Source: a bacterium (lineage in GTDB: Bacteria; UBA8248). Taken from it: a stretch of DNA of 64,000 bases. Positions 2,505-61,636 of this stretch are shown here, piece by piece. The first letter of the stretch is position 1; each line of letters begins with the position of its first letter. The position numbers and the translations under genes are program-made. The DNA lies in contig CBDBZY010000003.1 of assembly GCA_965213685.1 (NCBI GenBank), positions 160,001-224,000 on the forward strand, written 5' to 3'. The notes under the pieces are model-generated. The model was not told where the DNA came from. It saw only the letters and a list, made by a program, of their open reading frames with translations, and did not search any database.

Positions 2505-2637
2505 TGCGCCAACAAGGAAGAAGAGGCTGCGCGAAGGCTCAGGCGAAGCTGGATGACGCAATAGAAGCCTAGGGACTACTGGCATAAATGCCGCCCGGGT
2601 TGAGAGGCTCGGGCGCATTTTACGTGAGGGCATTTGC

Positions 2638-3012
2638 GTGCAAACGTCATACTACAAGAAGTCATGGGATGCGTCCGGTGCGGTGGGAATATCGAGAGGA
2701 ACAGCGAGGTTTGTGAGGCGGAAGTTGCCTCGTTTGATGGATCTGGCTCCGTCCTGGTCGATGCTGAAAATGCCGAGGCCAGAGTATGACAGGTTGTTTC
2801 GAGAAATTTTGTCGAAGCTGGAGCCGGACGACATGTGGGAGAGGGCGCATCGGTTGGCACATCCGCATGAGCCCGTGCTGTTGTGTTTTGAGCCTCCGTT
2901 CCAGTGGTGTCACCGGAGAATGGTTGCTGAGTGGTTTGAGGCGGCGGGACACGGTCCTGTCTGCGAGCTGGGATACGGGGAAGATTATCCCGGCTATGCT
3001 GATTTGGAGTAA
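2638..3012 (+). CDS. DUF488-family protein (short phage-type form)
   Basis: MQTSYY start, LAPSW, and VLLCFE..FQWCHRRMVAEW motif; more A/T-rich codon usage than flanking genes. Confidence 0.75.
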   Translation: MQTSYYKKSWDASGAVGISRGTARFVRRKLPRLMDLAPSWSMLKMPRPEYDRLFREILSKLEPDDMWERAHRLAHPHEPVLLCFEPPFQWCHRRMVAEWFEAAGHGPVCELGYGEDYPGYADLE

Positions 3013-3015
3013 ACA

Positions 3016-3074
3016 GAGCGGGATTCAGGAGTCGAACCTGTCTCCGATGAGGAATCGGCTACCCGCATATCCGC
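3016..3074 (-). other. tRNA-like fragment (T-arm plus acceptor 3' strand), not a complete tRNA
   Basis: Minus strand reads GCGGATATGCGGGTAG-CCGAT TCCTC ATCGG-AGA-CAGG TTCGACT CCTG-AATCCCGCTC; T-loop hairpin present, no D-arm, no CCA. Confidence 0.5.
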
Positions 3075-4399
3075 CGGGCGGACGCAAGCAGCCGCTCCTT
3101 GGCTTTCGCGATCCTGCCCGGGTCGACCAGCAGCCTTTTGCCCTCTTTCACCTTCTTGCCGGCGATGAATACCGCCTCCACGTTGGAGCGCTCCGCGTGG
3201 AAGACGACGGCGCTCGCCGCATCCTCCGCCGGCGCCATGTTGAGGTCGTCTTTGCGGATCAGGATCAGGTCGGCCTGCTTGCCGGGCGTGATGGAGCCGA
3301 TGGCGTCCGCCATGCCCATCGCGTGCGCGTTGTTGATGGTGGCCCAGGCGAGCGCGTCGCGCGCCGAGAAGGAGAGGGCGGGCGCCCTGTATGTGGCCGC
3401 ATCCAGGCGCTGGTTGTCGAATATCCTTTGCACCTGCAGGGCGTGCCGCGCGGCGTGCAGCATGTTGCCGGCCACGTAGGTTTCCAGATCGACGCCGATG
3501 GAGGGCCTCCCCCCCAGTGCGCTTACGCGGCCGCAGACCGACGCGCCCCTGTTCGTCTGCATCTCGGCTGCGGGCGTGGCGGTGATGGACGCGCCGGCGT
3601 CCAGAATCACGCGCAGCTCCTCGTCCGCCACGTAGTTGCAGTGCACCAGGTTGTGGTCGGCGCCCAGCACCCCCTCCCTCGCCAGCGCGCGGTAGCCCCC
3701 CGGCGTCTTCCTGCGCGCGTCTCCCCAGATGTGGGCGCTCGAGAGGAGGCCGTATTCACGCGCCAGGCGCATGTCGTGCAGCGTGATTTCGAGGGGGGAG
3801 TAATCGGCCCCCAAAATGGCCATCGCCAGCGTGACGCGGCCGTCGTCATCCGACAGGCGCCCCGTTCGCAATCGTTTGACCTCGCTTCTCGGGTGCGGGA
3901 TTTGCGAATAGTGGGGCGCGCCCGCCCTCGGTTTCGGCTTGGGCGTTCCGTGTCCGAAGAGGGCGCGAATCCCCGAATCGAACAGGGCGTCTACGCTGGC
4001 GTCGGTGTGCGCAGGCGTGGGATTGTTGTGACACCAGTCGAACAGCGTCGTGACGCCGGCCTCCATCTGCCCCCAGGCGCCCACGAGCGTGGCGACGTAC
4101 ATGTCCTCCGGGCGGTAGCGCGGGGCCAGGGTCTCATGGACGATCTCGAAATACGCGCGTCCGCCCCAGTTGCCGCCCAGCCCGCGAAGCGCGGTTTGCC
4201 AGGTGTGCATGTGCGCGTTGATGAGGCCGGGCAGGAGGATCGTCCCCCGGGCGTCGATGGTTTCCGCATCCGTCGCGTCGAGGTTCTCGCCCACCGCGGA
4301 AATCCGTCGCCCCTCTATCAGGACGTCGCCGCCCGCGACCTCCCCGATGCGGGGATCCATCGAGAGGATCGTCGCGTTCCGGATGAGCGTTCTCGTCAT
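3059..4399 (-). CDS. Amidohydrolase family protein (TRZ/ATZ, deaminase-like)
   Basis: PGLINAHMHTWQ, SAHIW, LVHCN, SIGVD and GSITPGKQADL motifs. Confidence 0.9.
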   Translation of the reverse strand: MTRTLIRNATILSMDPRIGEVAGGDVLIEGRRISAVGENLDATDAETIDARGTILLPGLINAHMHTWQTALRGLGGNWGGRAYFEIVHETLAPRYRPEDMYVATLVGAWGQMEAGVTTLFDWCHNNPTPAHTDASVDALFDSGIRALFGHGTPKPKPRAGAPHYSQIPHPRSEVKRLRTGRLSDDDGRVTLAMAILGADYSPLEITLHDMRLAREYGLLSSAHIWGDARRKTPGGYRALAREGVLGADHNLVHCNYVADEELRVILDAGASITATPAAEMQTNRGASVCGRVSALGGRPSIGVDLETYVAGNMLHAARHALQVQRIFDNQRLDAATYRAPALSFSARDALAWATINNAHAMGMADAIGSITPGKQADLILIRKDDLNMAPAEDAASAVVFHAERSNVEAVFIAGKKVKEGKRLLVDPGRIAKAKERLLASARRICG

Positions 4400-5058
4400 G
4401 CGGGCCGCTCCCCGTCACCGGCCTCCGGGAACGCATCCGGCCAGTCGGCCAGCAGCCCCTCCACATACGCCTTGAGGTCTTCGGGTCGTTTTCGGCGCAC
4501 CTTGTTCTTGTCGATCTCCTCTTGCGACTCGATGGGAATCCGCAGCGCGTCGTTGAACTTGTTTCGCATGTCGAAATAGGTGATGACCATGGTGAGCTCG
4601 ACGATTTCCGCGTCGGTGAAGTGTCGCCTGAGCCGGTCGAACACGTCGTCTCTCTCCCTGGCCGTGCCCATCGTCACGTGCTCCGCCCAGAGCAGGACGG
4701 CGCCCTCCCGCTCGGGGAATCCCGCGTAATCGCCCGCGCGGATGGCCGCGAGCTGGGCTTCCGTGATTCCGGCCGATTGACCAACCGGCGTGTTGTGCGC
4801 CAGTCAGTAGGCGCAGTCGTTGAGTTGGCTGGTCTTGAGGATCGCCAGCGCTTTCGTTTTCGTGCCCAGCATCGAACCCAGCCCCTGGCGCAGGAGCGAC
4901 GCGGTGAGCGGCAGCATGAACTTCGCGAGGAAGGGCTGGTTCGCCATGACGCGCCAGGCGTTGGGGATGCGGTTCAGAAGAACGCTGGCATGGTCGAGCA
5001 GGCGGTTCACGGCGGGGTCGTCGTCGGCTCCGGATTCCAGCATGGGGATTCGGGACAC
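4396..5058 (-). CDS. AhpD/carboxymuconolactone-decarboxylase-family protein, predicted selenoprotein (CxxU, TGA 4804-4806), about 220 aa
   Basis: ORFs 4804-5127 and 4396-4677 are in frame with 42 open codons between them. Readthrough gives KTSQLNDCAY-U-LAHN...EREGAVLLWAEHVT...FDRLRRHFTDAEIVELT...RNKFNDAL. AGGAG precedes GTG 5058; ATGA overlap with the amidohydrolase. Confidence 0.88.
4772..4806 (-). promoter_or_regulatory. Putative bacterial SECIS element
   Basis: TGA, 14 nt, then GCCGGTT-GGTC-AATCGGC (7-bp stem with one G-U pair); G-starting loop 21 nt from the UGA. Confidence 0.75.
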
Positions 5059-5147
5059 GGGGTGCGCTCCTTTTATCGGGGGATGGCCGCTCGCGGGAAT
5101 GCGGCCATTGTCCGACGAAACGCGCATCTTGAAAACCGCCGCGACCT

Positions 5148-5176
5148 TTGATTGGCGGGCCGCGCGGTGCTAGGCT
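5148..5176 (+). promoter_or_regulatory. Putative sigma70 promoter for the Gfo/Idh/MocA pair
   Basis: TTGATT-N17-TAGGCT with a TG extended -10 element. Confidence 0.45.
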
Positions 5177-5223
5177 TGCGGAATCGACCCGGAATTCATA
5201 CGCCCCCGTGCAGGTGACCCCGC

Positions 5224-6339
5224 ATGACATCCCCGGCGGAGAGAAGAACGCCCATCGGCCTGGCCGTGGTGGGATGCGGCAAGATTGGACGCATCCGCGC
5301 GGAATTCGCTCGGCAGAACGCCGCGGTGCAATGGATGGGGCTGTGCGACCTCGACGAGGGGGTCGGCAGAAGGCTCGCGGAGGATGTGGGTGCCGATTTT
5401 TTCACCACCGACTACCGGGCGCTCCTGCGGCGCGAAGAGGTGAACAGCGTCGTTTTGGCCACGTATGCGAGTGAGCGGCTCGAACCCGTCCTGCTCGGCG
5501 CGGAGCGCGGCCACCGGATGCTGATCGAAAAACCCCTGGCCGTGGACGCCGCCGTGTCCGCCCGTCTGGTGAAGGCCATCGAAGATGCGGGCGTCGACGC
5601 CGTCCTGGGCTACACGCAAAGGTTCCGCCGCCGCTTTCTGGTGGCGAAGGAGAAAATTCGCTCCGGCGCGCTGGGCGAAATCTCCTCCGTCACGGGCCGC
5701 GCCTTTTTGAACCGCATGAACCCGGTGGCGAATTCCACCAAGACGGAGTTCCCCACGAAATTCACGCCCATGGTCATCTCGGGAACCCATGGCGTGGACT
5801 TGTGCTCCTGGTTTCTCGAGGGGCTGCGCCCGGTGGAGGTGTATGCGCGCTCGGTGGACAAGGCGATGGCACCCTATCTCACCAAGGACTCCACCTTCGC
5901 CATCGTCACCCACGCGGACGGGACGATATGGAGCATGAACGTGAGCTGGGCACTGCCGCGCGTCTGGCCGGCGGAGGTGTATTCGCTCGAGCTGGGCGTC
6001 GTGGGAACGGGGGGCGTGCTCACGATAGACGATACGCACCGCGACATGGTGTTCGCCACCGAGGAGGCGCACGAGTCGGCGCGCCTGCGGCAGGAGCGGA
6101 ACGTGAGCTTTTTGACGAGCTATCCGCCGGGGGACGTGGTCTTCGGCCAGCTCTGGGGCCCGATGCGCGAGGAGACGCGCTCCTGGTTCGACAGGATTTA
6201 CCTGGGCGTCCCCACGCCGCACGCCACCGCGCGGGAAGCCCATGAGAACCTGATGCTGTGTCTGGCGATGGACCATTCGGCCCAGACGGGCCGGGCGGTG
6301 TCCCTTCCGATCTCGCCGGAGGATTTCGGGCGCGGGTAG
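5224..6339 (+). CDS. Gfo/Idh/MocA family oxidoreductase
   Basis: VVGCGKIG Rossmann motif, IEKPLA, GYTQRF. Confidence 0.9.
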   Translation: MTSPAERRTPIGLAVVGCGKIGRIRAEFARQNAAVQWMGLCDLDEGVGRRLAEDVGADFFTTDYRALLRREEVNSVVLATYASERLEPVLLGAERGHRMLIEKPLAVDAAVSARLVKAIEDAGVDAVLGYTQRFRRRFLVAKEKIRSGALGEISSVTGRAFLNRMNPVANSTKTEFPTKFTPMVISGTHGVDLCSWFLEGLRPVEVYARSVDKAMAPYLTKDSTFAIVTHADGTIWSMNVSWALPRVWPAEVYSLELGVVGTGGVLTIDDTHRDMVFATEEAHESARLRQERNVSFLTSYPPGDVVFGQLWGPMREETRSWFDRIYLGVPTPHATAREAHENLMLCLAMDHSAQTGRAVSLPISPEDFGRG

Positions 6340-6450
6340 GCGCGCGCCGCTTGCCCGGGGCCGGCTGTCCGCGCCGCCGCCGCGCCGTGGGAGCGGAGCC
6401 CCCTGCGTTTTTTCCCGTGCGAAGGGACGGGAATGCCTGACTAGGAGAGC

Positions 6451-7584
6451 GTGATGGCGGTTTCGGAAACCGGGAATCGACCGATTGGCCTGGCGATAGT
6501 CGGCTGCGGGCGGGTGGGGCGCATTCGCGCGCGGTGTGCCAGGGAGTATCCGGGCACGGAGTGGCTCGGCTGCTGCGACGTGGATACGAAGAAGGGCAGG
6601 GCCATGGCGGAGGAGTTCGGCGCTGATTTTTTCACCGCCGATTTTTCGGAGCTGATCGCCAGACCGGAGGTCAACGCCGTCATCATCGCCACGGACGAGG
6701 AGTGGCACGCGAGGCCGCTGTGGGAGGCGATAGCCCGGGGGCACAGGATACTGGTGGAGAAGCCGCTGGCCACGAGCGTGACGGAGTCGGCGAGAATCGT
6801 GGAGGCGGCGGAGTCAGCGGGCGTGGAGCTGCTGGTGGGCTATACCCAGCGCTTCCGCAGGCGGTGGCTCACGGCGAGGGAGCACGTGCAGTCCGGGATT
6901 CTGGGCGAGATCACCTCCGCGACGACGCGCGCCCTGCTCAACCGCCAGGTCGGCATCACCCGCCTGGGGCGGAACGAGGATCGCTCCATGCTGACGCCCA
7001 TGGTCATATCCGGGACCCATGCGCTCGACGTCATGCTGTTCGTGATGGGGCCGGGGAAGCGTCCCGTGGAGGTGGTCTCGCGCTCGATATCGAGGGTGAT
7101 GGCGGGCGTCGGCACCCAGGACGCCACCTTCAGCATCTTCACCTTCGACGATGGCACCATCTGGAGCATGGAGTGCAGCTGGGGGATGCCCACCATCTGG
7201 CCCGCATCGACGTATGGCCTCGCCATCAGCGTGGTGGGCACCGAGGGCGCACTCACCATCGACGACACCCACGCCGATTTCATCATGGCGTCCGAGAATC
7301 CCCTGGCCTCCCACCGGGGGGAGGAGCGCCACGTGCACCTGCTCGGCAGCTATCCGGCGGGGGACATGTCCAGGGGCCGGTTCTGGGGTCCGATGCGCGA
7401 CGAGTCCATCGCCTGGCTCGCGCACCTCTACACGGGGGCGGACATGCCCCACGCCACGGGGGCGGAGGGACACCGCAACCTCATGCTCTGCATGGCGTGC
7501 GACCTGTCGGCGAGGCGGGGGGAAGCCGTCCAACTGCCCATCGCACCGGAGGCGCTGCACGCGGGACTCCAGGCGAGAGCCTAG
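6451..7584 (+). CDS. Gfo/Idh/MocA family oxidoreductase (paralog of upstream gene)
   Basis: IVGCGRVG, VEKPLA, GYTQRFRRR, TPMVISGTH. Confidence 0.9.
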   Translation: MMAVSETGNRPIGLAIVGCGRVGRIRARCAREYPGTEWLGCCDVDTKKGRAMAEEFGADFFTADFSELIARPEVNAVIIATDEEWHARPLWEAIARGHRILVEKPLATSVTESARIVEAAESAGVELLVGYTQRFRRRWLTAREHVQSGILGEITSATTRALLNRQVGITRLGRNEDRSMLTPMVISGTHALDVMLFVMGPGKRPVEVVSRSISRVMAGVGTQDATFSIFTFDDGTIWSMECSWGMPTIWPASTYGLAISVVGTEGALTIDDTHADFIMASENPLASHRGEERHVHLLGSYPAGDMSRGRFWGPMRDESIAWLAHLYTGADMPHATGAEGHRNLMLCMACDLSARRGEAVQLPIAPEALHAGLQARA

Positions 7585-7931
7585 TCCATCGTCGCACTCG
7601 GCGGAGGCCAGTCCGCCGACTTGTTCTTGAACGAGAGGTAGATGAATTCGCCGTCTCCCCCGTTCCGGAACTCGTGCTCCACCCCTTCGGGGATGTGGAT
7701 GATGTCGCCCGCCGTGACGGTCTTCTCCTCATCCCCCACGCGGAACCACGCCGCTCCCTCGACGACGTTGATGATCTGCTCGCAGCCGTGCGTGTGCGGG
7801 CGCGCCAGCTTGCCGGGCTGGCTCACCGACCGGTTCAGCGTGACGTGCTCGCCGATGATGATGCTGCCCTCCGAATCCGAGGGCCTGGCCAGGTTCTTGC
7901 GCCTCATCTCCTCCCAACGGTAAAACGGCAT
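7581..7931 (-). CDS. Cupin domain protein
   Basis: PHTHGCEQIINVVEG and GDIIHIPEGVEH cupin motifs; GAGGAG before the ATG. Confidence 0.85.
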   Translation of the reverse strand: MPFYRWEEMRRKNLARPSDSEGSIIIGEHVTLNRSVSQPGKLARPHTHGCEQIINVVEGAAWFRVGDEEKTVTAGDIIHIPEGVEHEFRNGGDGEFIYLSFKNKSADWPPPSATMD

Positions 7932-8006
7932 GGTTTGGCTCCTCTTCAGGTTCAGGCGTTTCCTGTTCCGGGACGCGACAAATCCGCGTCCGTCCCCCAT
8001 CATTTG

Positions 8007-8036
8007 TTGACACCCCAACGCTCCCGTCTGTAAGAT
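8007..8036 (+). promoter_or_regulatory. Putative sigma70 promoter upstream of TAXI-TRAP genes
   Basis: TTGACA-N18-TAAGAT. Confidence 0.55.
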
Positions 8037-8286
8037 TTCCCCAAGCATACATCAAAGAGCGTGGGCGGGGGAGCGAGAAGCACCAGGATGCATCCCCGCC
8101 GGTATGCTTCTGTTGTCGCCGGCGGCTTCTCATGCCGCGGATTTTGGCGGGAAACCGGGCGGGCGGGGAGAGGGGAGTATGTTCCGTCGCGCCTCCCCCG
8201 GGAAACGGGCATGATGCGCCAGAGCAGGTCCAGCACTGAAAATGTTGCCGAAACGCCAGTCACCTTTATTATCAGGGAGAGGAAAA

Positions 8287-9270
8287 ATGAAAAAAATCAC
8301 CATGATGTTCGGAGTCTTGGCCTTGGTCCTGCCGTTCCTGGCGGTGGGCGACGCCTGGAGTGCGCCCGCGAAATACGACCTGGCGGTCGGCAGCCTGCGC
8401 GGCACCATGGGCAGGCTGGGTGCGGGCCTCACCGAGATTTTCAACAAGAGGCAGAACAAGGCCATCATCAGCGTGGTGCCCGGCGGCGGCCGCGCCAACC
8501 CCGCGCGCCTCGGAACGGGCGGTGCGGATTTCGCCTATTCGTTCTCGAATTTCGCCAGCGCGGCGATCGCCGGCAAGACGCCCTACAAGAAAGCGTACAA
8601 GGACATCCGGGGCGTCGCCACGTTCTGGGCCTCTTGCTACCACCAGTATGCGGCCAAGGAGCGGTATGACGCAGGCGTCAAGACCTGGGGGGACATCATC
8701 AAGTCGAAGACGCCCCTGAAGCTGGCGCCTGCGAAAAAGGGCACCAGCTCGGAATACGTGGCGAGCCTGATCGTCAAGCACTACGGAACGAGCTACCGCG
8801 CGCTCACGAAGCGGGGCTACAAGCTCACCTTTCCGGGCGCCGGCGGCATGTCGCGCGCGATCCGGGCGCGCCAGATTGACTTCTACTTCCACAATTCGGG
8901 TGACCCCAACGGCGCGGGCATCCAGGCGGCACTAGGCAGGAATCTCGTATTCCTGGACATGGCCGACGAGGTGAAGAAAATGCTCGCGGGCCATGGGTTC
9001 ACGCCCTGCCAGATTCCGGGCGGCATCTACAAGGGAACCGACAAGCCGAAGGATTCGATGGGGCTTTCCGGCGTGCTGCTCACCACGACCAAGATGAACC
9101 CCGACGTGGTGTATTCGATTCTCAAGACGGCGCAGAGAGAGAAGAAGTTCCTCTCGAACGTCCACAAGATTTATAAAAGATGGGACCCCAAGAAGGCGGG
9201 CATGAACATCGGAGCGCCCCTGCACGAGGGCGCGAAGCGCTTCTACAAGGAGATCGGCGCGTCGAACTAG
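8287..9270 (+). CDS. TAXI-family TRAP transporter solute-binding protein
   Basis: Signal peptide, PGGGRAN, IPGGIYKG and C-terminal PLHEGAKRFYKEIG signature. Confidence 0.88.
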   Translation: MKKITMMFGVLALVLPFLAVGDAWSAPAKYDLAVGSLRGTMGRLGAGLTEIFNKRQNKAIISVVPGGGRANPARLGTGGADFAYSFSNFASAAIAGKTPYKKAYKDIRGVATFWASCYHQYAAKERYDAGVKTWGDIIKSKTPLKLAPAKKGTSSEYVASLIVKHYGTSYRALTKRGYKLTFPGAGGMSRAIRARQIDFYFHNSGDPNGAGIQAALGRNLVFLDMADEVKKMLAGHGFTPCQIPGGIYKGTDKPKDSMGLSGVLLTTTKMNPDVVYSILKTAQREKKFLSNVHKIYKRWDPKKAGMNIGAPLHEGAKRFYKEIGASN

Positions 9271-9312
9271 CCGGATTTCGGACGGGTTCCCAAGGAGAAA
9301 GAGGCGACAGGG

Positions 9313-11289
9313 ATGATGGATGGGAAAGAAAGGACTCCACTGGACTGGCTCGTTCTGGCGATAGCGGTCGGCATGTCCGTCTTTCACATCCAGGTGGCCT
9401 ATACGGGAGGGTATGAGCCGCTCTACCAGCGGGCGCTTTCCTACCTGTTCGGCATGTCCCTGATATTCATCGTCTACAGAAAACCGGCCGGGGGAGGGTG
9501 GCGCGCCGTCGCGGCGGCCGCCATCTTCCTCCTGGCGGTGCTCTCGGTCGCCTATCCGATATGGAACATCGACTATTTTCTGGACCGTCTGTATTACGTG
9601 GACCCGCTGGGTCCCGTGGACATGATCCTCGGCACGGCGGTTCTGGTGCTCACCTTCGAGGCGGCGCGAAGGACCATCAACCTGGCGCTGCCGATGATTT
9701 CGCTCTTCTTCATCGTCTATTCGTATTTCGGCCCCTATTTCCCCTGGTATCTGGCGCACAAGGGCGCCTCCTACATGCACATCGTGGATCACCAGTACAT
9801 GACCTACGACGGTCTCTGGACGGCGCCGCTGAGCGTTTTCTCGGTCTACATCTTTCTTTTCATCCTGTTCGGCGCGTTCCTGGACCGCATGGGGGCAGCC
9901 GATTTCTACGTGAAGCTCTCCGTGTCGGTCGCGGGCAAGCTGCGGGGCGGGCCGGCGAAGGCGTCGGTCTTCGCCAGCGCCATGACGGGAACCATCATGG
10001 GCAGCGCCAACGCCAACGTGGTCACCACGGGGTCGTTCACCATACCGATGATGAAGCGCACGGGATTCCGTCCGGAGATAGCGGCGGCGATCGAGACGGC
10101 GGCCTCCACGGGGGGGCAAATCATGCCGCCCGTCATGGGGGCTTCCGCGTTCCTGATAGTGGAGTTCACGGGCATATCCTACTGGGAAATCGTGAAGGTA
10201 TCGATTCTGCCGGCCGTTCTCTACTTCTTCTCCGTCTACGCCATCGTGCACCTGGAGGCCAGGAAGGAAGGCCTTGTGGGCATGTCCCGGGAGTTGATAC
10301 CCCCCCTGGGGCCCATCATGAGGGACGGGTGGTTCTACCTCCTCCCCCCCCTGGTGATTCTGGCGATCCTCATGACGGGCAGGAGCGTTCCCTATGCGGG
10401 CCTCGCCGGCATCCTGTCCGTCGTGCTTCTGGCGGGGCTGAAGGGCGCCCTCGACTTGCGGGAAAAGGCCAGGAGGGAGGGCACGAGCGTAGGCGAGGTC
10501 GCGCGCGAGGTGGGCAGGGGGCTTTGGAACATCGTCCTGGCACTGGAGAAAGGGGCGGTGCAGTCGCTCCCCATATGCGCGGCCGTGGGCGCGGTGGGCA
10601 TCATCATGGGCGCCTTGTTTCAAACCGGCCTGGGCCTGAAGTTCTCCTCCCTGGTCACGAACCTGGCGAATGACAACCTGTTTCTGGGGATTCTCCTGGT
10701 GGGCGTGGCCTCGTTCGTGCTCGGCATGGGCCTGCCGACGAGTGCGGCCTACATCGTCTTGTCGGTCATGGCGGTGCCCGCACTCCTGGAGCTGGGAGAG
10801 CCATACAAGCTCTCGCTTCTCTCCGCCCATCTCATCGTGTTCTGGTATAGCCTGGACAGTTGCTTCACGCCCCCGGTATGCGTGCCGGCCTATACGGCGG
10901 CGGGCATAGCGGACGCCAATCCGGGGAAGGCCGCCTGGGCGTCTTTCCGTACGGCCAAGGGCATGTACATCCTGCCCATGATGTTCGCCTTCACCCCGAT
11001 TCTGCTGATTCGCCAGCCCTGGTTGTCGCTGGAGACCTTCGCCGCCGCCCTGCTCGGCTTCCAGGCACTGGCCGCCGCCATGGTCGGGTTCATGTATTTT
11101 TCCTTCTCCGGGCCGGTGCGCGCACTCCTTTTCCTCTCGGCGGGGCTCTTGTTCTGGCCGGGGTATGCGAACCACCTGGCCGGTGCAATCCTGCTGGGCG
11201 CGGTGTTCCTCACGCAGCGCAGACGCCTCGCGAGAGAGGGAGAACCCGCCCCCGCCGCCGTCGCCGCCGGGCAGGCGGGCTCCGTATAG
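9313..11289 (+). CDS. TRAP transporter fused 4TM/12TM permease (TAXI-associated)
   Basis: GGPAK, ANVVTTGSFTIPMMKRTG, ASTGGQIMPPVMG, LGMGLPT and TPPV motifs. Confidence 0.93.
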   Translation: MMDGKERTPLDWLVLAIAVGMSVFHIQVAYTGGYEPLYQRALSYLFGMSLIFIVYRKPAGGGWRAVAAAAIFLLAVLSVAYPIWNIDYFLDRLYYVDPLGPVDMILGTAVLVLTFEAARRTINLALPMISLFFIVYSYFGPYFPWYLAHKGASYMHIVDHQYMTYDGLWTAPLSVFSVYIFLFILFGAFLDRMGAADFYVKLSVSVAGKLRGGPAKASVFASAMTGTIMGSANANVVTTGSFTIPMMKRTGFRPEIAAAIETAASTGGQIMPPVMGASAFLIVEFTGISYWEIVKVSILPAVLYFFSVYAIVHLEARKEGLVGMSRELIPPLGPIMRDGWFYLLPPLVILAILMTGRSVPYAGLAGILSVVLLAGLKGALDLREKARREGTSVGEVAREVGRGLWNIVLALEKGAVQSLPICAAVGAVGIIMGALFQTGLGLKFSSLVTNLANDNLFLGILLVGVASFVLGMGLPTSAAYIVLSVMAVPALLELGEPYKLSLLSAHLIVFWYSLDSCFTPPVCVPAYTAAGIADANPGKAAWASFRTAKGMYILPMMFAFTPILLIRQPWLSLETFAAALLGFQALAAAMVGFMYFSFSGPVRALLFLSAGLLFWPGYANHLAGAILLGAVFLTQRRRLAREGEPAPAAVAAGQAGSV

Positions 11290-23244: not shown

Positions 23245-23320
23245 GGGGCTGTAGCTCAGCTGGGAGAGCGCATGACTGGCAGTCATGAGGTCAGGGGTTC
23301 GATCCCCCTCAGCTCCACCA
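23245..23320 (+). tRNA. tRNA-Ala(GGC)
   Basis: 76-nt cloverleaf GGGGCTG...CAGCTCC-ACCA, G3-U70 pair, anticodon arm CATGA-CTGGCAG-TCATG, T-loop TTCGATC. Confidence 0.97.
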
Positions 23321-61401: not shown

Positions 61402-61470
61402 GGCGGCGCACCTCCTCGAGCGGCCCAAGCACTCGAAATGGACCCCTTGCGGGGCCTTGTGGAAGATGCC

Positions 61471-61608
61471 GCAGGCCGGTCTCCTGGCTCGCGCCGATGG
61501 CCGCCTTTCATTCCTTCCCGGGATTAAGTCCCGGTGGATTGCATGAAAAGCGCGTCGCTTACAGTTGCTGGGCAGCTCCGGTCTTTCACCGGATTCCCGA
61601 ACACCTGC
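61471..61608 (-). promoter_or_regulatory. Cobalamin riboswitch
   Basis: Minus strand GCAGGTG..GGGAATCCGGTGAAAGACCGGAGCTGCCCAGCAACTGTAA...GGGAAGG...GAGCCAGGAGACCGGCCTGC. Confidence 0.93.
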
Positions 61609-61636
61609 GGGCTGTTTTCCCGGCGGATGGTCTCCA

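Follow-up and report, generated by a model that had tools for sequence, protein, structure and literature searches.

The locus described here raises a simple question: is a TGA codon that cuts an apparently conserved gene in two a stop signal, or is it translated and, if so, as which amino acid? The gene lies in a 64,000-nucleotide (nt) stretch of a bacterial genome of the UBA8248 lineage (assembly GCA_965213685.1, contig CBDBZY010000003.1, positions 160,001 to 224,000), henceforth the window, to which the coordinates refer unless another contig is named. Standard open reading frame (ORF) calling yields two pieces, one of 107 amino acids (aa) that ends at the internal TGA and another of 93 aa that starts from a later GTG. 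A preliminary description of the window, made from the sequence alone and without a statement of the strand, had read through the TGA and proposed a hidden AhpD-like selenoprotein with a CxxU motif. When read directly from the sequence and translated with TGA as selenocysteine (Sec, U), the gene occupies positions 5058..4396 of the minus strand, begins with the GTG at 5058, and consists of 220 codons and a TGA stop. It contains only one internal TGA, at codon 85 (4806..4804; context SQLNDCAY-U-LAHNT), beyond which the frame stays open for 135 further codons, up to the stop TGA at 4398..4396. The split of the ORF at the second Cys of the AhpD motif and the continuation of the frame into the C-terminal half of a CMD domain are as first described, and the N-termini of full-length Cys-containing homologues line up with the GTG start. 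We consider it highly probable (roughly 0.88) that the gene encodes a genuine Sec protein of the AhpD/CMD fold, belonging to the known AhpD-like CxxU group, in which UGA-85 is decoded via a hairpin with a GGUC loop. This reading appears well supported by comparison, that is, by the Cys/Sec pairs among homologues, the conservation of the TGA, the covarying hairpin, the presence of the Sec machinery, and the use of TGA as an ordinary stop nearby; the hidden selenoprotein of the preliminary description is borne out on the same grounds.

The affiliation of the read-through protein with the CMD family is clear. It matches the Pfam CMD domain (PF02627) with 36.1 bits against a cut-off of 23, and an AlphaFold model built from 25 aligned sequences has a confidence (pLDDT) of 92.5, with a helix (residues 83-95) that begins at the redox motif. 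A Foldseek search with this model returned 37 Protein Data Bank (PDB) matches at E <= 0.001, and those listed down to rank 33 are all of the AhpD/CMD type, the best neighbours being 2prr, AhpD of D. radiodurans (6k40, TM 0.82 by target length), Bmp8, and PA0269. The motif C82-A-Y-U85-L-A-H88 has the C-x-x-C-then-His arrangement of the CMD/AhpD superfamily, with Sec in the place of the second Cys; Cys82 is encoded by TGC (4813..4815), Sec85 by the in-frame TGA (4804..4806), and His88 by CAC (4795..4797), all on the minus strand, and the columns of Cys82 and His88 are nearly invariant. Among solved structures, the top sequence match (E 1.2e-13) is PA0269 of Pseudomonas aeruginosa (PDB 2ijc, 2o4d, 7xw1), a CMD family protein deposited as AhpD. 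In this alignment, TSQLNDCAYC of the selenoprotein (with C written for U85) matches TSQINGCAYC of PA0269, so that residue 85 takes the place of the second Cys in the pair. The two proteins differ in that PA0269 has Cys instead of Sec, is only 145 aa long, lacks the N- and C-terminal extensions of the selenoprotein, and carries its His at +4 (CAYCVNMH), whereas His88 is one residue closer, at +3 from Sec85. A link to AhpC, as would befit AhpD proper, was sought in the gene neighbourhood, and no peroxiredoxin was found among the neighbours of the selenoprotein gene.

A search of 5.8 billion proteins returned 92 relatives at E <= 0.001, of which 29 were aligned with the query. Among these 29, the full-length relatives of 219-234 aa contain Cys at the Sec column (for example, NGCAYCYAHNT in a 222-aa protein), with the single exception of P0053, which has Trp. 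The closest relatives (73-76% identity), several of which are named 'Nitrospinae bacterium' by NCBI, are without exception 122-aa fragments that begin just past the TGA position, and one fragment with 81% identity stops exactly at ...NNCAY. Fragments of this kind are typical of Sec genes that gene finders have cut. They are also what one would see if the TGA were a true stop or the gene had decayed, leaving two short products or none and a downstream frame that is a relic; however, gene finders yield such fragments at any Sec codon. A group of larger relatives, P0002-P0020 (330-365 aa), consists of two-domain proteins in which an extra, partial CMD repeat at the N-terminus is followed by a domain that has A-x-x-S in place of the redox pair; these are redox-dead versions of the family.

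The DNA of the relatives, read directly, bypasses the gene calls. Matches were found in 47 of 61 genomes and in all 36 of those within the same family. Among the matches listed, a single one lacks an in-frame TGA and most contain exactly one; 244 further matches exist beyond those listed. The column was located in 30 fetched loci: the one in the window, 21 of its genus, and 8 that belong to the family but to other genera. The TGA is present at the same column in 30/30, in each case following Cys-x-x, with the first Cys encoded by TGC or TGT throughout. In the genome that contains the window, all seven members of the family have the TGA at this column, and 26 of 27 other paralogue segments (drawn from 26 loci) share it, the remaining one having TGT instead. 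By contrast with these TGA-containing loci, a contig search by patterns with Cys at the Sec position retrieved only seven distant Cys homologues, from other phyla, which served as a negative control, and in 7/7 of these the column is TGC or TGT. Homologues with Cys at the TGA position, the search for which had been suggested as a check, are therefore on record both as the 222-aa forms and as these seven loci, and homologues with neither Cys nor TGA at the column, which would have spoken against a selenoprotein, did not appear among the 30 related loci and the seven from other phyla. The Cys homologues carry Joint Genome Institute names such as 'alkylhydroperoxidase family enzyme' and 'uncharacterized peroxidase-related enzyme'.

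Both halves of the gene have been maintained as protein: within the genus, identity is 75-80% and there are no frameshifts in an ungapped alignment of 22 sequences. A relic would not be expected to keep the TGA in 30 of 30 loci together with this degree of downstream identity and with the low synonymous change at the hairpin that is described below, nor would seven members of the family in one genome be expected to share the design. Over positions 3900-5300, which include the codon, the contigs of three runs from one study show 0 differences (one of the contigs from 4108 onward), although these runs may be the source of this assembly.

The six further CxxU paralogues of the CMD fold in the genome that contains the window have their TGA at C31:45658, C31:120774, C31:181418, C45:41314, C36:162003, and C25:36811. 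In relatives of the same family, each genome yields 3-18 matches, of which nearly all contain one TGA. The segment with TGT comes from a locus with two adjacent paralogues (L081, G035:C61). One copy has the usual C-x-x-TGA; in the other, along with the change to TGT, the first Cys and the His are lost (NESAYCLAQM) and the hairpin is degraded; this copy may be a decaying or neofunctionalised duplicate.

If the TGA is translated, it could, in principle, be read as Trp, Gly, or Cys, either under a changed genetic code or by near-cognate read-through. The Trp recorded at the Sec column in the P0053 cluster (53 members; CDYWLAH) agrees with such a reading, but may simply result from gene calling under a code in which TGA stands for Trp. 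Three genes in the window, among them the selenoprotein gene, have TGA as their stop, and 0 of 9 neighbouring genes contain an internal TGA; as TGA is a normal stop nearby, there is no genome-wide recoding. Furthermore, the column is occupied by the redox Cys in the homologues, which makes for a classic Sec/Cys pair, and the genome encodes tRNA-Sec, SelA, and SelB (see below). We regard decoding as an amino acid other than Sec as scarcely credible, the least probable of all the alternatives considered here.

An element resembling a bacterial selenocysteine insertion sequence (SECIS) is present just downstream of codon 85. The sequence GCCGGTT-GGTC-AATCGGC (4772..4789 of the minus strand) can form a hairpin with a 7-base-pair stem (GCCGGUU/AAUCGGC) and a GGUC loop (4782..4779), the stem starting 14 nt and the loop 21 nt after the UGA, exactly as the preliminary description had it. 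Thus positioned just 3' of the UGA and with G in a small apical loop, it has the features by which a SECIS is recognised. The element resembles the SECIS of E. coli fdhF, in which the hairpin also follows the UGA directly and the apex also is GGUC, in agreement with what the preliminary description said of that loop; on NC_000913, the GGTC is found 18 nt after the TGA, between GCA and TGC, compared with 21 nt here, and the stem sequences are unrelated. This apex of the fdhF SECIS is the part to which SelB binds.

A single hairpin of this kind proves nothing by itself because its stability is not unusual for a GC-rich sequence, and the case rests on the comparative alignment. Across the 30 loci (29 distinct rows), the seven pairs form in 92.6% of the cells, a proportion that drops to 8-55% when the register is slid and that none of 500 shuffles attains. 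To widen the diversity, 16 of the first 30 sequences were combined with 26 of the 27 paralogue segments into a set of 42, leaving out the TGT copy and 14 near-identical rows from the same genus (L028-L037, L039-L041, L043). Here, 77.9% of the cells pair (31-60% in slid registers), 31 cells are changed on both sides, and the covariation score is 0.371 vs 0.224, with 0 of 500 shuffles reaching either of the latter two values. At least 40 of the 42 sequences retain the apical pairs; the alternatives are U-A (28 sequences) and C-G (12) at pair 30-35, and C-G (29) and G-U (11) at pair 28-37. The position of the loop is fixed, with its first two positions invariably G, and in all seven paralogues of the genome that contains the window the stem is capped by a loop of GGUC or GGCC, equally far from the UGA in each. 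In the seven Cys homologues, only 1-4 of the 7 pairs form, that is, the hairpin is absent. Synonymous variation points in the same direction: within the genus, the synonymous entropy is 0.18 bits in codons +1 to +11 after the UGA, compared with 0.55 bits in the other 151 usable codons, and the lowest 8 of 153 sliding windows of synonymous variation all span or adjoin the UGA. Together, the Cys-homologue control and the synonymous variation speak for a constraint at the RNA level. For the 30-sequence alignment, RNAalifold favoured another, weaker register (pair 25-44 and others; -6.4 kcal/mol with a covariation term of -0.08), which was set aside: several sequences disrupt its pairs 28-41 and 25-44, and pairing is better in the register given above.

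The machinery for Sec incorporation was identified in the same genome, which is 94% complete and assembled into 71 contigs. The tRNA-Sec gene (selC) scores 78.6 bits, above the curated cut-off, and is called SeC(tca) by ARAGORN; selA (564 bits) and selB (370 bits) adjoin each other, are both in open frames, and both exceed the curated cut-offs. The gene for SelD, with a UGA codon of its own (GGUGSK), is located on contig C31 at about 101,000-102,200 (L018). The sel genes that the preliminary description had named for confirmation are accordingly in place for selA, selB, and selC; selD is present as well but, in this assembly, is interrupted by 14 extra bases.

Several observations weigh against the selenoprotein interpretation. 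Folded as a single sequence, the segment 4745-4812 is not exceptionally stable (z = -0.36), and 60 of 200 shuffles fold equally well. The count of pairs with change on both sides is matched by 74 of 500 shuffles for the 30 loci and by 250 of 500 for the 42 sequences, and the count of further pair types by 330 and 462 of 500, respectively, so that two of the five pair measures do not stand out from the shuffled alignments. The four lower pairs of the stem are unpaired in 8-19 of the 42 sequences, and some paralogues adopt a register with a one-base bulge, with 60% of the cells pairing at a slide of +1. The invariance of the loop GG is not independent of the protein because these bases also belong to a conserved Gly codon. 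Rfam models, applied at gathering scores, detected no SECIS family in the window, and at E <= 10 they produced, for positions 4650-4900, three noise matches far under the cut-offs. The placement within a subfamily is loose because none of the closest NCBIfam models is matched above its curated threshold: 67.6 bits against 310 for the YciW-related (seleno)protein NF053654, 53.4 against 81.8 for the peroxidase-related enzyme TIGR01926, and 31.5 against 175 for the alkylhydroperoxidase-related (seleno)protein NF041238. The biochemical role that we infer below comes from the family only. Finally, selD in this assembly is spread over at least three frames.

The state of selD is the second point, besides the fragmentary public gene calls, that would favour a true stop or a decayed gene. 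Compared with an intact selD from the same genus (81% identity), the gene contains 14 extra bases at 11 places. Since every one of them falls within a run of G or C, and since no base is deleted, we read them as assembly error; in 5 of 5 closed genomes of the same genus, selD is intact and contains one TGA. The frame breaks, then, are probably errors of assembly, and less probably a real defect. Taken together with the conservation of the TGA and of the downstream frame, this makes a true stop or gene decay very improbable. Other genes on contig C31 may also carry assembly errors.

If UGA-85 is indeed a Sec codon, the following course of events can be envisaged. The codon would be read by Sec-tRNA(Sec), delivered by SelB upon recognition of the GGUC-loop hairpin 21 nt downstream. 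The redox centre, Cys82-x-x-Sec85, would be located at the start of a helix, with His88 adjoining it. In AhpD, the second residue of the redox pair is the attacking one, which places Sec at the nucleophilic position, so that the selenolate of Sec85 would be the attacking group. After reaction with an oxidised substrate, Cys82 would resolve the intermediate, giving a selenenylsulfide that would be reduced back by a thiol system of the cell. By analogy with the family, the product would be a small reductase acting on peroxides, oxidised thiols, or another electrophilic substrate.

The group to which this protein belongs has been in print since 2005, as the preliminary description presumed in stating that AhpD-like selenoproteins exist. 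In that year, AhpD-like CXXU proteins were reported as a new selenoprotein family with 27 sequences (PMC1088965), and in the Global Ocean Sampling data AhpD-like 1 (COG2128, 299 sequences) and AhpD-like 2 (pfam02627, 70 sequences) are given among the most abundant selenoprotein families (PMC2398784); Zhang and Gladyshev refer to these as 'AhpD-like 1' and 'AhpD-like 2 / CMD domain-containing' (2005, 2008). A table in a 2026 review includes the CxxU selenoproteins AhpD-like (TIGR01926), CMD-like (PF02627), and AhpD-related (NF041238) (PMC13188914). According to a 2026 database paper, three genomes labelled 'Nitrospinae/Nitrospinota' (UBA8248 in GTDB) are among the top ten bacteria by the number of selenoprotein genes, with 48-54 each (PMC13326102). 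The gene described here is a further member of this known family. In common with the family, it has the CMD/AhpD fold, carries Sec where the C-x-x-C motif of the widespread Cys homologues has its second Cys, and shows, right behind the UGA, a small hairpin whose apical loop contains G; it differs in having a conserved C-terminal tail of about 45 residues that ends W-P-x-x-F-P and in the occurrence of several copies per genome in this lineage.

As such, the gene is one more case of the well-known exchange between Sec and Cys in a thiol redox fold. Public databases hold it and its relatives in pieces, as 122-aa proteins annotated as 'CMD family' or 'hypothetical' and as short N-terminal stubs, and because annotation records these truncated pieces, the selenoproteins of the lineage are undercounted and real genes are split. 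The aspect that may repay study is the expansion of paralogues, of which this genome holds seven members. With dozens of paralogues, a fixed GGUC/GGNC loop, and a fixed distance from the UGA, they form an unusually clean comparative set that could be used to train or test models of the bacterial SECIS.

The preliminary description had gone further and cast the selenoprotein as a partner of the gene that follows it. This gene (3059..4399, minus strand) encodes a 446-aa amidohydrolase of the deaminase/chlorohydrolase branch, which matches Pfam Amidohydro_1 and, at 520 bits (cut-off 391), NCBIfam NF006056 (PRK08204), a model that bears the name 'hypothetical protein'. Among solved structures, the nearest to it are those of 8-oxoguanine deaminase/AtzB-like proteins, atrazine chlorohydrolase, and triazine hydrolase, none with an E value better than 1e-22, and it is also distantly related to the deaminase of methylthioadenosine/S-adenosylhomocysteine (MTA/SAH). 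'Deaminase-type' is a fair label for the branch rather than a known function. The stop of the selenoprotein gene and the ATG of the amidohydrolase gene (4399..4397) overlap by 4 nt as ATGA (4396..4399), which is what had been noticed at the outset. The two genes make up a unit, the selenoprotein gene first and the amidohydrolase gene second, with the flanking genes on the other strand.

Under the proposal of a dedicated partnership, the selenoprotein might keep the amidohydrolase or its substrate reduced, or might catalyse a reduction of the substrate or the product, instead of being a peroxidase or redox protein of general use. The proposal is based on gene order: the ATGA overlap implies co-transcription and translational coupling, the unit consists of just these two genes between flanks of opposite strand, and in the 21 same-genus loci an amidohydrolase homologue is found downstream of the selenoprotein gene in 19 and is missing in 2. 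An intact orthologue of the amidohydrolase is present in 17 of 22 same-genus genomes, and none of the same-genus genomes searched has it without an orthologue of the selenoprotein; one genome, G009, lacks both genes.

The amidohydrolase gene begins at the stop of the selenoprotein gene in 10 of the 21 loci, with two damaged copies (split in G006, reduced to the first 70 residues in G004), starts 5 nt later in one, and starts 390-780 nt later in eight (L034, L035, L039-L044), where the two genes are separated by an insert that holds a DUF2283 gene (56.5 bits). Three genomes of the genus keep the selenoprotein without an intact orthologous hydrolase, namely, G004, with its truncated copy; G007, in which there is only a paralogue of 52% identity, far away; and G001, a closed genome of 99% completeness, in which the selenoprotein is retained with 79% identity and the amidohydrolase has no match genome-wide at E <= 1e-20. 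The linkage ends at the border of the genus. None of the 21 loci of CMD relatives outside it or elsewhere in the genome (8 from other genera, the 6 own paralogues, and the 7 Cys homologues) has an amidohydrolase in its flanks, and no CMD gene was found beside the amidohydrolase relatives at 12 loci, 7 of which lie in other genera (55-61% identity) and 5 of which are paralogous (about 50%); in three of the 12, the upstream flank is shorter than 850 nt. The amidohydrolase family is, moreover, very large, with 3743 proteins at E <= 1e-40, and is widespread without a CMD neighbour. The literature search found no paper that links a CMD selenoprotein to an amidohydrolase. Judged from these comparisons, the pairing appears to be an arrangement of one genus, compatible with a shared role yet far from showing one. 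A partnership would be new if true, and we hold it to be unlikely, albeit the least so among the alternatives; the evidence makes its generality unlikely in any case. Most likely, the coupling to the amidohydrolase does not define the function of the selenoprotein.

Two of these loci show additional features. In L034, the insert contains a second small ORF without a Pfam match, and about 17 of the first codons of the amidohydrolase seem to have been left in front of the insert, an arrangement that suggests a mobile small-gene cassette with target duplication. In L025 of G001, the place of the amidohydrolase is taken by a short ORF that ends in a long run of prolines and by an ORF resembling a membrane protein.

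Among the structural neighbours of the selenoprotein is the debrominase Bmp8 (PDB 6ohi, 6ohj), which has the CMD fold and takes ranks 2 and 5 in the Foldseek list (TM 0.63-0.75); the similarity at the sequence level is weak (E 8.8e-5), with only 18-21% identity. Bmp8 is reported to be a thiol-based reductive dehalogenase. One might speculate that the CxxU selenoproteins of the CMD fold in this lineage are a family of substrate-specialised selenol reductases and not redundant antioxidants, some of them reductive dehalogenases that work in the manner of Bmp8 and resemble the selenoenzyme deiodinase in their chemistry, and that this copy would act in the pathway of its amidohydrolase neighbour on a halogenated or aminated heterocycle. 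A dehalogenase-like role is hinted at only by the fold shared with Bmp8 and by the chlorohydrolases to which the neighbour is related, and we rate both that role and the wider scheme as improbable, well below the partnership as such and somewhat above a true stop. We keep to the interpretation of the gene as an AhpD-like CxxU selenoprotein, the first of two genes and presumably coupled in translation to the second through the ATGA.

The surroundings of the unit can be summarised as follows. A Shine-Dalgarno-like AAAGGAG (5067..5073, minus strand), read directly from the sequence, precedes the GTG start by 8 nt. A scan of positions 2600-5400 for promoters and terminators found nothing positioned to serve the selenoprotein-amidohydrolase unit. 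On the 3' side of the unit, the opposite strand carries genes for a DUF488 protein and a sulfatase; on the 5' side, two GFO/IDH/MocA oxidoreductase genes are divergent from it. The divergent neighbourhood at 5224-7584 (+), 7581-8048 (-), and 8242-11289 (+) comprises this GFO/IDH/MocA paralogue pair, a cupin, and a TRAP-type transporter made up of an NMT1_3 binding protein and DctM. Of the 21 same-genus loci, 17 have the first of the GFO/IDH/MocA oxidoreductase genes beside the gene for the selenoprotein. Elsewhere in the window, the only Rfam matches at gathering scores are a cobalamin riboswitch at 61457-61623 (-), with 100.8 bits, and a tRNA gene at 23245-23317 (+).

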